From the NCBI RefSeq assembly GCF_058153355.1, contig NZ_CM177019.1: a stretch of DNA of 64,000 nucleotides. One strand, given 5' to 3'. A program made the translations under genes and the position numbers. Positions 6,211 to 63,164 of this stretch are shown piece by piece; position 1 is the first letter of the stretch, and each line of letters starts with the position of its first letter. The notes under the pieces were generated by a model. That model saw only the letters and a program-made list of their open reading frames with translations, was not told where the DNA came from and searched no databases.

Positions 6211-7866
6211 ATGACGAATCTTCCCCACTGGTGGCAAAACGGCGTTATCTACCAGATTTATCCCAAGAGTTTTCAGGACACCACGGGTAGCGGCACCGGT
6301 GATTTACGTGGCGTTATCCAACGCCTGGACTATCTGCATAAACTGGGCGTCGATGCTATCTGGCTAACCCCCTTTTATGTCTCTCCCCAGGTCGATAACG
6401 GATACGACGTAGCGAACTATACGGCGATAGATCCCACTTACGGTACGCTGGACGATTTTGACGAAATGGTGACGCAGGCGAAATCACGCGGCATTCGTAT
6501 CATTCTCGATATGGTGTTTAACCATACCTCTACCCAACATGCCTGGTTTCGCGAGGCGCTGAGCAAAGAAAGCCCTTACCGCCAGTTTTATATCTGGCGC
6601 GATGGTGAACCAGAAACGCCACCGAATAACTGGCGTTCAAAATTTGGCGGTAGTGCGTGGCGCTGGCATGCAGAAAGCGAACAGTACTATTTGCATCTCT
6701 TTGCACCAGAACAGGCGGATCTCAACTGGGAGAATCCGGCGGTACGCGCAGAACTGAAAAAAGTCTGTGAGTTCTGGGCCGATCGCGGGGTCGACGGGTT
6801 ACGCCTGGATGTAGTGAATTTGATCTCTAAAGATCCGCGTTTTCCTAATGACCTGGATGGCGACGGGCGTCGCTTCTACACCGACGGGCCACGAGCACAC
6901 GAGTTTTTGCACGAGATGAACCGCGATGTGTTTACGCCTCGCGGTTTAATGACCGTGGGTGAAATGTCCTCCACCAGCCTTGAGCATTGCCAGCGATACG
7001 CGGCACTAACAGGCAGTGAATTGTCGATGACCTTTAATTTTCATCACCTGAAGGTCGATTATCCCGGTGGTGAAAAATGGACGCTGGCTAAACCTGACTT
7101 TGTGGCGTTGAAAGCATTGTTCCGCCACTGGCAACAAGGAATGCACAACGTGGCATGGAATGCCTTGTTCTGGTGTAACCACGATCAGCCGCGCATTGTT
7201 TCTCGTTTTGGTGATGAAGGGGACTACCGCGAACCTGCGGCAAAAATGCTGGCGATGGTGCTGCATGGCATGCAGGGAACGCCATATATCTATCAGGGCG
7301 AAGAGATTGGCATGACTAATCCACATTTCACGCGCATTACTGACTATCGCGACGTGGAGAGCCTCAATATGTTTGCCGAACTGCGCAACGATGGGCGTGA
7401 CGCCGAGGAGTTATTGGCAATCCTCGCCAGTAAATCCCGTGACAATAGTCGCACGCCAATGCAATGGAGCAACGGCGATAATGCCGGGTTTACAACGGGT
7501 GAACCGTGGATTGGCCTGGGCGATAACTATCAAGAAATCAACGTAGAAGCTGCGCTGGCCGATGAGTTCTCAGTGTTTTACACCTACCAAAAGTTAATCG
7601 CACTGCGTAAGCAAGAAGCCGTCCTGACATGGGGCAATTACCAGGATCTGCTGCCAGACAGCCCTGTATTGTGGTGCTATCGCCGTGAATGGAAGGGGCA
7701 AACCTTGCTGGTCATTGCCAACCTTAGCCGTGAGATCCAACCCTGGCAGCCAGGGCAAATGCGCGGAAACTGGCAGCTTGTGATGCATAACTACGAAGAA
7801 GCCTCAGCACAACCCTGTGCCATGACTTTACGGCCTTTTGAGGCCGTCTGGTGGTTACAGAAGTAA
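6211..7866 (+). CDS. treC: Trehalose-6-phosphate hydrolase TreC (GH13 alpha-glucosidase family)
   Basis: 551-aa product from ATG 6211 (MTNLPHWWQNGVIYQIYPKSF...); GH13 motifs DAIWLTP, GIRIILDMVFNHTS and GVDGLRLDVV. Confidence 0.95.
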   Translation: MTNLPHWWQNGVIYQIYPKSFQDTTGSGTGDLRGVIQRLDYLHKLGVDAIWLTPFYVSPQVDNGYDVANYTAIDPTYGTLDDFDEMVTQAKSRGIRIILDMVFNHTSTQHAWFREALSKESPYRQFYIWRDGEPETPPNNWRSKFGGSAWRWHAESEQYYLHLFAPEQADLNWENPAVRAELKKVCEFWADRGVDGLRLDVVNLISKDPRFPNDLDGDGRRFYTDGPRAHEFLHEMNRDVFTPRGLMTVGEMSSTSLEHCQRYAALTGSELSMTFNFHHLKVDYPGGEKWTLAKPDFVALKALFRHWQQGMHNVAWNALFWCNHDQPRIVSRFGDEGDYREPAAKMLAMVLHGMQGTPYIYQGEEIGMTNPHFTRITDYRDVESLNMFAELRNDGRDAEELLAILASKSRDNSRTPMQWSNGDNAGFTTGEPWIGLGDNYQEINVEAALADEFSVFYTYQKLIALRKQEAVLTWGNYQDLLPDSPVLWCYRREWKGQTLLVIANLSREIQPWQPGQMRGNWQLVMHNYEEASAQPCAMTLRPFEAVWWLQK

Positions 7867-7878
7867 GTATCCGCTAAG

Positions 7879-7908
7879 CCCCGGTAATACTGGTCATTCC
7901 GGGGTTTT
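7879..7908 (+). terminator. Rho-independent terminator downstream of treC
   Basis: ccccgg-N14-ccgggg stem followed by tttt. Confidence 0.6.
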
Positions 7909-8010
7909 GCCTTTCAGTATGTTGTTTTTGTTGATTTTATAATCAAAAAATTCATTAAAAAATTTACATAACGCTGTAGCGCCCGTCATCCGTACGCTCT
8001 GCTTTTTACT

Positions 8011-8055
8011 TTGAGCTACATCAAAAAAAGTTCAAACATCCTTGATGCAAAGCAC
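8011..8055 (+). promoter_or_regulatory. Two FNR-like sites upstream of nrdD, centred about 31 bp apart
   Basis: ttgagctacatcaa (8011-8024; TTGAG-N4-ATCAA) and ttgatgcaaagcac (8042-8055; half-site). A TAAAAT -10 hexamer at 8069-8074 would put them near -64.5 and -33.5, consistent with FNR-activated anaerobic nrdDG expression. Confidence 0.45.
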
Positions 8056-8098
8056 TATATATAGACTTTAAAATGCGTCCCGACCCAATATGTTGTAT
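8052..8098 (+). promoter_or_regulatory. Two NrdR boxes overlapping the nrdD core promoter
   Basis: gcactatatatagact (8052-8067) and acccaatatgttgtat (8083-8098), each about 13/16 to the NrdR consensus acaCwAtATaTwGtgt, with about 31 bp between centres. Confidence 0.45.
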
Positions 8099-8259
8099 TA
8101 ATCGACTATAATTGCTACTACAACACCACACGAAAAAGGTGCGGCGTTGTGGATAAGCGGATGGCGATTGCGGAAAGCGCCGGAAAACGAAACGAAAAAA
8201 CCGGAAAACACCTTTCCCAATTTCTGTGGATAACCTGTTCTTAAAAATATGGAGCGATC

Positions 8260-10398
8260 ATGACACCGCATGTGATGAAACGAGACGGCTGCAAAGTGCC
8301 GTTTAAATCAGAGCGCATCAAAGAAGCGATTCTGCGTGCAGCTAAAGCAGCGGAAGTCGATGATGCAGATTATTGCGCCACTGTTGCCGCGGTTGTCAGC
8401 GAGCAGATGCAGGGCCGCAGCCAGGTGGATATCAACGAGATCCAGACCGCCGTTGAAAACCAGCTTATGTCGGGTCCATACAAACAACTGGCTCGTGCTT
8501 ACATCGAGTACCGTCACGATCGCGACATTGAACGTGAAAAACGCGGTCGCCTGAATCAGGAGATCCGTGGTCTGGTCGAGCAGACCAACGCCTCGTTGCT
8601 CAACGAAAACGCCAACAAAGACAGCAAGGTGATTCCAACCCAGCGCGACCTGCTGGCCGGGATTGTGGCTAAACACTATGCACGTCAGCACCTGCTGCCG
8701 CGTGACGTGGTGCAGGCGCATGAGCGTGGCGATATTCACTATCACGATCTCGATTACTCGCCGTTCTTCCCGATGTTCAACTGCATGTTGATCGACCTGA
8801 AAGGTATGCTGACCCAAGGCTTTAAGATGGGTAACGCCGAGATTGAACCACCGAAGTCGATCTCTACGGCAACCGCGGTAACAGCGCAGATTATTGCTCA
8901 GGTCGCCAGTCATATTTATGGCGGCACCACCATTAACCGTATCGATGAAGTGCTGGCACCGTTTGTCACCGCCAGCTACAACAAACACCGCAAGACCGCA
9001 GAAGAGTGGAACATCCCGGACGCCGAAGGTTACGCTAACTCTCGTACCATCAAAGAGTGCTACGATGCCTTCCAGTCGCTGGAGTACGAAGTAAACACCC
9101 TGCACACCGCCAACGGTCAAACACCGTTTGTGACCTTTGGTTTTGGTCTGGGCACCAGCTGGGAGTCGCGCCTGATTCAGGAGTCTATCCTGCGTAACCG
9201 TATCGCGGGCCTCGGTAAAAACCGCAAAACTGCGGTGTTCCCGAAACTGGTGTTTGCGATTCGCGATGGCCTGAACCATAAAAAAGGCGATCCGAACTAC
9301 GACATCAAACAGCTGGCGCTGGAGTGCGCAAGCAAGCGCATGTATCCGGATATCCTGAACTACGATCAGGTAGTGAAAGTCACCGGTTCGTTTAAAACCC
9401 CGATGGGCTGCCGTAGCTTCCTCGGCGTGTGGGAAAATGAAAACGGCGAACAGATCCACGATGGTCGTAACAACCTCGGCGTGATCAGCCTGAACCTGCC
9501 GCGCATTGCTCTGGAAGCGAAAGGCGATGAAGCCACCTTCTGGAAGCTGCTGGATGAACGTCTGGTGCTGGCACGTAAGGCGCTGATGACCCGTATCGCT
9601 CGTCTCGAAGGCGTTAAAGCGCACGTGGCCCCGATCCTCTATATGGAAGGTGCTTGTGGCGTTCGTCTGAATGCTGACGACGACGTTTCTGAAATCTTCA
9701 AAAACGGTCGTGCGTCTATTTCGCTGGGTTACATCGGCATCCACGAAACCATTAACGCGCTGTTTGGCGGCGAGCATGTGTATGACAACGAGCAGCTGCG
9801 CGCGAAAGGTATCGCCATTGTTGAACGTCTGCGTCAGGCGGTGGATCAGTGGAAAGAAGAAACGGGTTACGGTTTTAGCCTTTACAGCACGCCAAGTGAA
9901 AACCTGTGCGACCGCTTCTGCCGTCTCGATACCGCGGAGTTTGGCGTGGTGCCGGGCGTGACTGATAAAGGTTACTACACCAACAGTTTCCACCTCGATG
10001 TCGAGAAGAAGGTGAACCCGTACGACAAGATCGACTTTGAAGCGCCTTACCCGCCGCTGGCGAACGGTGGCTTCATTTGCTACGGCGAATATCCAAACAT
10101 TCAGCACAACCTGAAGGCGCTGGAAGATGTCTGGGATTACAGCTATCAGCATGTACCGTATTACGGCACCAATACGCCGATTGATGAGTGTTACGAGTGT
10201 GGTTTTACCGGTGAGTTTGAGTGCACCAGTAAAGGCTTCACCTGCCCGAAATGCGGTAACCATGACGCCTCCCGTGTGTCGGTGACTCGCCGCGTGTGCG
10301 GATATTTAGGTAGCCCGGATGCGCGTCCGTTTAACGCTGGTAAGCAGGAAGAAGTTAAGCGCCGCGTTAAACATTTGGGAAATGGGCAGATCGGTTAA
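8260..10398 (+). CDS. nrdD: Anaerobic ribonucleoside-triphosphate reductase NrdD (class III RNR)
   Basis: 712-aa ORF; N-terminal ATP-cone, C-terminal glycyl-radical region and Cys-rich zinc ribbon (CYECGFTGEFECTSKGFTCPKCGN); RBS ggag upstream. Confidence 0.97.
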   Translation: MTPHVMKRDGCKVPFKSERIKEAILRAAKAAEVDDADYCATVAAVVSEQMQGRSQVDINEIQTAVENQLMSGPYKQLARAYIEYRHDRDIEREKRGRLNQEIRGLVEQTNASLLNENANKDSKVIPTQRDLLAGIVAKHYARQHLLPRDVVQAHERGDIHYHDLDYSPFFPMFNCMLIDLKGMLTQGFKMGNAEIEPPKSISTATAVTAQIIAQVASHIYGGTTINRIDEVLAPFVTASYNKHRKTAEEWNIPDAEGYANSRTIKECYDAFQSLEYEVNTLHTANGQTPFVTFGFGLGTSWESRLIQESILRNRIAGLGKNRKTAVFPKLVFAIRDGLNHKKGDPNYDIKQLALECASKRMYPDILNYDQVVKVTGSFKTPMGCRSFLGVWENENGEQIHDGRNNLGVISLNLPRIALEAKGDEATFWKLLDERLVLARKALMTRIARLEGVKAHVAPILYMEGACGVRLNADDDVSEIFKNGRASISLGYIGIHETINALFGGEHVYDNEQLRAKGIAIVERLRQAVDQWKEETGYGFSLYSTPSENLCDRFCRLDTAEFGVVPGVTDKGYYTNSFHLDVEKKVNPYDKIDFEAPYPPLANGGFICYGEYPNIQHNLKALEDVWDYSYQHVPYYGTNTPIDECYECGFTGEFECTSKGFTCPKCGNHDASRVSVTRRVCGYLGSPDARPFNAGKQEEVKRRVKHLGNGQIG

Positions 10399-10420
10399 TC
10401 TTCACTCTGCGCTAAGCAAA

Positions 10421-10510
<90 letters not shown>

Positions 10511-10532: not shown

Positions 10533-10997
10533 ATGAATTATCATCAGTACTATCCTGTCGACATCGTCAACGGCCCCGGCACTCGCTGCACCCTGTTTGT
10601 CTCCGGGTGTGTTCATGAATGCCCCGGTTGCTATAACAAAAGCACCTGGCGGGTAAATTCCGGTCAGCCATTTACCAAAGCAATGGAAGACCAGATCATT
10701 AACGATCTGAATGACACCCGCATCAAACGCCAGGGTATTTCCCTCTCCGGCGGCGATCCGCTGCATCCGCAAAACGTGCCGGATATTCTAAAACTGGTAC
10801 AACGCATCCACGCCGAATGTCCGGGTAAAGACATCTGGGTGTGGACAGGCTATAAACTCGACGAACTCAACGCTGCGCAAATGCAGGTTGTTGATTTGAT
10901 TAACGTGCTGGTCGACGGCAAATTTATGCAGGATCTAAAAGACCCTTCCCTGATCTGGCGCGGCAGCAGCAATCAGGTGGTGCATCATTTGCGTTAG
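10533..10997 (+). CDS. nrdG: Anaerobic RNR activating enzyme NrdG (radical SAM)
   Basis: 154-aa product from ATG 10533 (MNYHQYYPVDIVNGPGTRCTLFVSGCVHECPGCYN...); radical-SAM Cys cluster. Confidence 0.95.
   Translation: MNYHQYYPVDIVNGPGTRCTLFVSGCVHECPGCYNKSTWRVNSGQPFTKAMEDQIINDLNDTRIKRQGISLSGGDPLHPQNVPDILKLVQRIHAECPGKDIWVWTGYKLDELNAAQMQVVDLINVLVDGKFMQDLKDPSLIWRGSSNQVVHHLR

Positions 10998-61412: not shown

Positions 61413-63164
<1,752 letters not shown>

Follow-up and report, generated by a model that had tools for sequence, protein, structure and literature searches.

The segment from position 8011 to position 8098 of the window, that is, of the whole 64,000-nucleotide stretch of DNA that was analysed, very probably forms the central part of the nrdDG promoter of Escherichia coli, working as it has been published. 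It comes from an Escherichia coli-type genome, has treC on one side and nrdD-nrdG on the other, and extends from the first base of an upstream FNR site (FNR-2) to the last base of the second of two NrdR boxes, which is the very span marked out in an earlier note made from the letters of this DNA. The sequence itself shows the motifs, how they are spaced and that they are conserved, and the binding and regulatory effects would carry over from published experiments in K-12 and Salmonella on near-identical DNA. The earlier note had read the segment as fitting the known anaerobic activation by FNR and repression by NrdR of the class III ribonucleotide reductase (RNR), and had called this a consistency check and not a novelty; the reading is borne out, with operators identical to those of K-12 and with published binding and mutant data, and the nrdDG architecture, which matches the published values, was indeed already known. 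The positions of the features are collected in Table 1.

Table 1. Features of the nrdDG control region and its surroundings, in window positions.
Feature	Position	Strand	Remarks
treC-nrdD intergenic space	7867-8259		treC stop at 7866, nrdD ATG at 8260
FNR-2, TTGAGCTACATCAA	8011-8024	+	Centre 8017.5; 1 mismatch to TTGAT-N4-ATCAA; identical in K-12
FNR-1, TTGATGCAAAGCAC	8042-8055	+	Centre 8048.5; 2 mismatches, right half-site degenerate
NrdR box 1, GCACTATATATAGACT	8052-8067	+	-30 to -15 of P1; inside the published 57-mer
P1 -10 hexamer, TAAAAT	8069-8074	+	Between the NrdR boxes, in their linker; -13 to -8
P1 transcription start	8082	+	Inferred from the published -64.5/-33.5; G here, A in K-12
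NrdR box 2, ACCCAATATGTTGTAT	8083-8098	+	+2 to +17 of P1, -36 to -21 of putative P2; inside the 57-mer
Putative P2 -10 hexamer, TATAAT	8107-8112	+	Perfect consensus; 8 bp past NrdR box 2
Predicted P2 transcription start	8119	+	7 nt past TATAAT; 141-nt leader
Perfect DnaA box, TTATCCACA	8148-8156	-	nrdD leader; kept in 81/82 species
Double DnaA box, perfect TTATCCACA (8225-8233) and weak TTAAGAACA (8236-8244)	8225-8244	-	Kept in 82/82 species
nrdD, anaerobic ribonucleoside-triphosphate reductase	8260-10398	+	712 aa; NF006732, 1219 bits, full length
nrdG, activating enzyme	10533-10997	+	154 aa from the ATG at 10533

The surroundings of the promoter are those known from K-12. Upstream lie treC and, farther out, treB; treB, treC, nrdD and nrdG are all named by full-length NCBIfam equivalog matches (for nrdG, NF008335 covers residues 16-169 of a longer ORF), and their order is that of K-12. 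A REP-like repeat, GCCGGATGCGGCGTAAACGCCTTATCCGGCCTAC, occupies positions 10415-10475 in the spacer between nrdD and nrdG. The intergenic region is 97% identical over 411 nt to that of K-12 MG1655 (NC_000913.3), where nrdD occupies 4460522-4462660 on the minus strand and the window runs antiparallel to the coordinates (window position x corresponds to 4462660 + (8260 - x)), and a 401-bp intergenic query was found in 5425 of the 5426 complete E. coli genomes. Within 8011-8098 just two substitutions separate the window from K-12, both outside the motifs: C>T at 8031, in the spacer between the FNR sites, and A>G at 8082, which is a base of the NrdR linker as well as the inferred start nucleotide of P1. 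The four operators and the -10 hexamer are identical at the same treC-nrdD locus, and in both genomes the FNR centres lie 31 bp apart, as do the NrdR boxes, with a linker of 15 bp; the window differs further from K-12 by clustered substitutions upstream, at 7944-7953. By gene context and operator identity the region is thus the orthologue of the E. coli nrdDG promoter region. The substitution at 8031 also disrupts an inverted repeat specific to K-12, TTTGAGCT...AGCTCAAA. The nrdDp promoter of K-12 is said to have been described by Boston and Atlung in 2003, by Torrents et al. in 2007 and by Roca et al. in 2008. It has also been described by Rozman Grinberg et al. (2025).

The strongest signal in the segment is the NrdR operator. 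When the 64 kb were scanned with the NrdR consensus ACACWATATATWGTGT (acaCwAtATaTwGtgt, a 16-bp palindrome with a central AT) allowing at most 3 mismatches, boxes 1 and 2 were the sole matches, each with 3 mismatches and the central AT, and the "about 31 bp" that the earlier note had given for their separation is exactly 31 bp from centre to centre, with the P1 -10 hexamer flanked by the two boxes. Chance would produce about 1.6e-5 pairs at 30-33 bp per window, and none of 400 first-order Markov simulations contained one; the pair is far beyond chance, and the NrdR operator is recoverable from the sequence alone. The spacing found here is that of NrdR operators (31-32 bp between centres, a linker of 15-16 bp, over an RNR promoter), and tandem 16-bp boxes with a 15-bp linker over the promoter are likewise the arrangement of the nrdAB and nrdHIEF operators. 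Two NrdR boxes, 15 bp apart, have been reported for nrdDG, and NrdR-ATP-dATP binds a K-12 nrdDG 57-mer with a KD of about 160 nM (PMC12176259); this 57-mer corresponds to 8047-8103 of the window, the sole difference being the linker base at 8082. In Salmonella, mutation of either NrdR box strongly derepresses nrdDG, and box 1 was noted to overlap the FNR site by a few nucleotides (Panosa et al., 2010); in the window, FNR-1 and box 1 share 4 bp (8052-8055).

The FNR sites stand differently. FNR-like matches with at most 2 mismatches number 51 in the 64 kb, against 34.8 expected, and for pairs of them separated by 20-42 bp the expectation is 0.41 per window, with at least one in 124 of the 400 simulations. 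The only other FNR-like pair at such a distance lies at 63108-63142 (TTAATCAAAACCAA and TTGATTCAAATTGA, starting 21 bp apart at 63108 and 63129). Because pairs of this kind are expected about 0.4 times per window, the FNR sites, FNR-1 above all, are not established from pattern matching by itself, and the matches are not significant on their own; the earlier statement that the promoter architecture can be recovered from sequence therefore stands for NrdR and claims rather much for FNR. The FNR site calls rest on position, conservation and the literature (ChIP-seq, gel-shift and SAXS). PMC10425943 quotes Roca et al. (2008) for two FNR sites in the nrdDG promoter, site 1 with its centre at -33.5 and site 2, bound with the higher affinity and both necessary and sufficient, at -64.5. 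The 54-mer on which FNR binding was studied corresponds to 8008-8061 of the window with one difference, the spacer base at 8031, and the mechanism of activation by FNR at nrdDG is termed "a remaining mystery" (PMC10425943). In K-12, all FNR ChIP-seq data sets have a peak at nrdD, for which the site TTGATGTAGCTCAA was called with a PWM score of 15.68; this is FNR-2 in reverse complement.

The start of P1 is placed at 8082 because the figures of -64.5 and -33.5 require +1 there; it is a second-hand position, derived from the FNR positions quoted in PMC10425943. It falls 8 nt past TAAAAT and gives a leader of 178 nt, and the position of the -10 hexamer agrees with the published start site. With this start the FNR-like sites and the TAAAAT hexamer are found where the earlier note had put them, with centres at -64.5 and -33.5, and the comparison with published mapping, which had been named there as a check, comes out compatible as far as the positions quoted from Roca et al. 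(2008) go. A synthetic nrdDG promoter described as "87 bp until TSS" and judged too weak ends at 8087 of the window. As an alternative start, 8087 would be +6 and would misfit -64.5 and -33.5, and the wording was taken as loose.

A scan of 7800-8300 with the sigma-70 consensus (-10 and -35 elements 16-18 bp apart) returned 0 sites, because neither of the two -10 hexamers of the region has a -35 partner. A missing -35 match is usual for activator-dependent promoters, and the absent -35 partners fit the activator dependence of the nrdDG promoter. In canonical FNR- and CRP-dependent promoters the activator is centred at -41.5 (class II) or at -61.5, -71.5, -82.5 or -92.5 (class I). The nrdDG promoter resembles them in having an FNR dimer upstream of a promoter without a -35 match, but the centres counted from P1, -64.5 and -33.5, fit neither class. 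Class II activation from FNR-2 would call for a start at 8059, and from FNR-1 for a start at 8090; at neither is there a -10-like hexamer where it would be needed.

For the comparison across species, 108 loci were retrieved from species-representative genomes with a degenerate pattern of the peptide KRDGCKVPF from the N-terminus of NrdD, and 82 unique sequences make up the Enterobacteriaceae set. In this family NrdR box 1 is preceded by the start of FNR-2 at 41 bp and by that of FNR-1 at 10 bp, the two NrdR boxes are separated by 31 bp in nearly all sequences, and two DnaA boxes lie around -112 and -35 relative to the ATG; the elements and their spacing are kept in at least 80 of the 82 species. 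The core (8003-8112) has a mean identity to the majority base of 0.89, against 0.53-0.60 in variable segments of the leader (82 sequences), and in 80/82 exactly 102 nt are counted from the first base of FNR-2 to the last of the putative P2 -10 hexamer at 8112. The bases TTG...TCAA of FNR-2 are kept in 82/82, and the P1 -10 hexamer reads TAAAAT in 64 sequences and TAGAAT in the other 18, so that TA[A/G]AAT is invariant. A reading of the motif matches as coincidence, without any part in regulation, might draw some colour from the frequency of FNR-like strings in the window and from the pairs of them expected by chance. It is given practically no credence and is already refuted by this conservation and by the literature, since the NrdR pair is vastly above chance, elements and spacing are shared by so many species, and published binding and mutational evidence exists on near-identical DNA.

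Outside the Enterobacteriaceae (loci L018, L023, L025, L065, L084, L085, L098 and L108), NrdR box 1 is preceded, at 39-40 bp, by only one FNR site in Pantoea, Tatumella, Rouxiella, Ewingella, Budviciaceae and Affinibrenneria. These other families of the Enterobacterales keep a -10-like element in the linker and both NrdR boxes, FNR-1 is absent, and the FNR site, being 2 bp closer, has a centre equivalent to the canonical -61.5. Because FNR-2, the NrdR pair and the linker -10 are kept there without FNR-1, they form the older core of the promoter; FNR-1 and the 2-bp shift are features of the Enterobacteriaceae.

FNR-1 is also the least uniform of the operators within the family. It occurs in 7 variants, the better form TTGATGCAAATCAC, with 1 mismatch, being found in 66 of the 82 sequences, whereas Escherichia carries the G variant, the weaker form. 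It may be asked if FNR-1 is a real activator site in Escherichia at all, or if it is a degenerate remnant whose main service would be to supply the -35-proximal part of P1 or a surface competing with NrdR box 1. Besides the weaker form in Escherichia, the 2 mismatches with loss of the TCAA half-site would agree with this, as would the form TTAATGCAAAGCAC, with 3 mismatches, in three other genomes of the Escherichia lineage, a centre at -33.5 that is unusual for an activator, and the published description of site 1 as weaker and auxiliary, with a gel-shift affinity below that of site 2 (PMC10425943). On the other hand, wild-type FNR occupies both sites of the 54-mer with the K-12 sequence in SAXS at high concentration (PMC10425943), and conservation extends to the left half-site of FNR-1 and to its spacing. 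The remnant reading is accordingly held to be improbable, and FNR-1 is retained as a weak, auxiliary site.

The three genomes carrying TTAATGCAAAGCAC, namely an E. coli-labelled genome (L019), Escherichia sp. E1V33 (L057) and E. whittamii (L092), also have TAAACT as the putative P2 -10 hexamer, and the combination suggests a lineage-specific weakening of FNR-1 and P2. This putative second promoter, together with the DnaA boxes treated below, was omitted from the model of the earlier note, which is incomplete in this respect. Its hexamer has the form TAnnnT in 81/82 Enterobacteriaceae species, with T1, A2 and T6 kept, and positions 3-5 vary freely, giving 14 sequence variants over the 82 species; such variation looks like the pattern of a working -10 element, unlike that of a protein operator.

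Start sites that would correspond to both promoters are known from Salmonella. In the dRNA-seq data of Salmonella SL1344, two nrdD start sites are listed, at 4715452 and 4715415 (Ramachandran et al., 2014), which with the nrdD ATG at 4715274 give leaders of 178 and 141 nt. The two are 37 nt apart, and carrying their distances from the ATG over to the window leads to 8082 for the 178-nt leader and to 8119 for the 141-nt leader. Their application to the window would follow from the identical geometry in S. enterica arizonae and diarizonae, which differ from the window in the better FNR-1 form TTGATGCAAATCAC, in FNR-2 (TTGTTCTACGTCAA) and in a P2 hexamer TACAAT instead of TATAAT. The Salmonella Typhimurium nrdDG promoter is like that of the window in its architecture, in its geometry from the ATG, with start sites at -178 and -141, in the function of both NrdR boxes and in the overlap of box 1 with the FNR site. 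P2 in E. coli is a prediction: among Cappable-seq, Kim 2012 and SMRT-Cappable-seq, no E. coli start-site table covering nrdD was found, the 2012 Salmonella supplement gave no nrdD start-site entry, and a literature search for primer extension of nrdD returned nothing.

Counted from the putative P2, the centre of FNR-2 is at -101.5 and that of FNR-1 at -70.5, and it is only from this start that the nrdDG centres come near those of canonical class I promoters. For CRP and FNR, -71.5 and about -102.5, on the same face of the helix, are known class I positions, from which the two centres are within 1 bp. P2 could thus be the promoter that matters most, with the FNR sites as a class I-type tandem, NrdR box 2 as a blocker of its -35 region and P1 as minor or condition-specific. 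A perfect consensus -10 hexamer of conserved form would be in keeping with this, and so would the weakness of the synthetic construct, which stops short of P2, and the lack of an explanation for the -33.5/-64.5 geometry. In the type column of the SL1344 table, moreover, the -141 start is P (primary), in the wild type only, and the -178 start is S (secondary); these data, however, were obtained in aerobic stationary phase and have no bearing on FNR dependence (Ramachandran et al., 2014). Against a leading role of P2 stand the published FNR-dependent start of E. coli, which, as far as it is quoted, puts the sites at -33.5 and -64.5, the invariance of the P1 -10 hexamer, and Pantoea and Tatumella, which are without P2 and yet keep the FNR site, the -10-like element of the linker and the NrdR boxes. 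A promoter centred on P2 is therefore considered a possible though rather unlikely arrangement, and P1 is kept as the main FNR-dependent promoter.

Downstream of both starts the leader contains the DnaA boxes, already known at nrdD; one further copy of the exact TTATNCACA is the only one elsewhere in the window. In K-12, DnaA ChIP-seq has a peak at nrdD that maps between both boxes, and the double box listed for this peak, tTTAAGAACAggTTATCCACAg (PMC11317965, 2024), is the reverse complement of 8224-8245 of the window. In addition, the NrdD protein is up in a DARS2 mutant. DnaA boxes are tied to an RNR operon in nrdAB too, with the difference that those of nrdDG are transcribed, being placed in the leader past both starts, and do not precede the promoter. 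In Budviciaceae and Affinibrenneria, TTATCCACA...ATCCACA follows straight after NrdR box 2 and, because the boxes are carried at this place, the association of DnaA boxes with nrdD predates the family Enterobacteriaceae. An Rfam scan of 7800-8400 (E at most 1) gave two chance-level matches only, neither in the leader, and the folding of the nrdD leader (z = -1.5) was not significant; on these two results the idea of a structured leader or riboswitch was dropped.

Taken together with the published work, these elements would act as follows. Under anoxia, dimeric [4Fe-4S] FNR would bind the strong site FNR-2 at -64.5, being needed there for transcription from P1, and FNR at the weak site FNR-1 (-33.5) would add to the activation. 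At dATP levels that are high for the demand, a tetramer of NrdR with ATP and dATP would sit on both 16-bp boxes, box 1 covering the spacer of P1 together with 4 bp of FNR-1, and box 2 covering +2 to +17; because the boxes cover the P1 spacer, FNR-1 and the start, NrdR would exclude RNA polymerase and compete with FNR at site 1. Directly downstream, the putative P2 would have NrdR box 2 as its -35 region, so that one NrdR tetramer could shut P1 and P2 alike, and the two DnaA boxes in the shared leader may add a replication-linked input. The view of the nrdDG control region as a tandem-promoter unit, with FNR near class I positions for P2, NrdR silencing both promoters and DnaA acting on both transcripts, is offered tentatively, with the odds rather against it; it is only a mildly new angle, the rest of the nrdDG architecture being already known.

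Some further features of the intergenic space deserve mention. Directly upstream of FNR-2, positions 7975-8010 hold a conserved block, AGCGCCCGTCATCyGTAC.CTC....TTTTTAC, which is 36 nt long in 81/82 species and the T-rich end of which may be UP-like. Readings of this block and of the conserved spacer as PurR-, IscR- or NarL-like sites were set aside, the matches being poor by eye. Farther upstream, in an AT-rich region, a TTGA-N8-TCAA palindrome, TTGATTTTATAATCAA, lies at 7936-7951; K-12 has TTGATTTTTCAACCAG there, with clustered substitutions, and Salmonella and Citrobacter have related forms, TTGA...ATCAG. As an FNR site the palindrome has a spacing 2 bp too long, and it is possibly an IHF-like or H-NS region. 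Just past the treC stop, a hairpin CCCCGG...CCGGGG followed by TTTT (7879-7908) probably terminates treBC; owing to its loop of 14 nt it escaped the terminator scan.

As for what these observations mean, the confirmed finding shows only that a textbook regulatory region can be recognised by a reader of the sequence, and what modest value there is comes from the comparison of species. The block of 102 nt, invariant in length, argues for one integrated architecture, in which FNR, NrdR and polymerase at two starts are followed by DnaA. If P2 were confirmed in E. coli, the published picture of how FNR and NrdR act at nrdDG would have to be redrawn with two promoters, and such a second promoter, if true, may resolve how FNR activates from the non-canonical positions -33.5 and -64.5.
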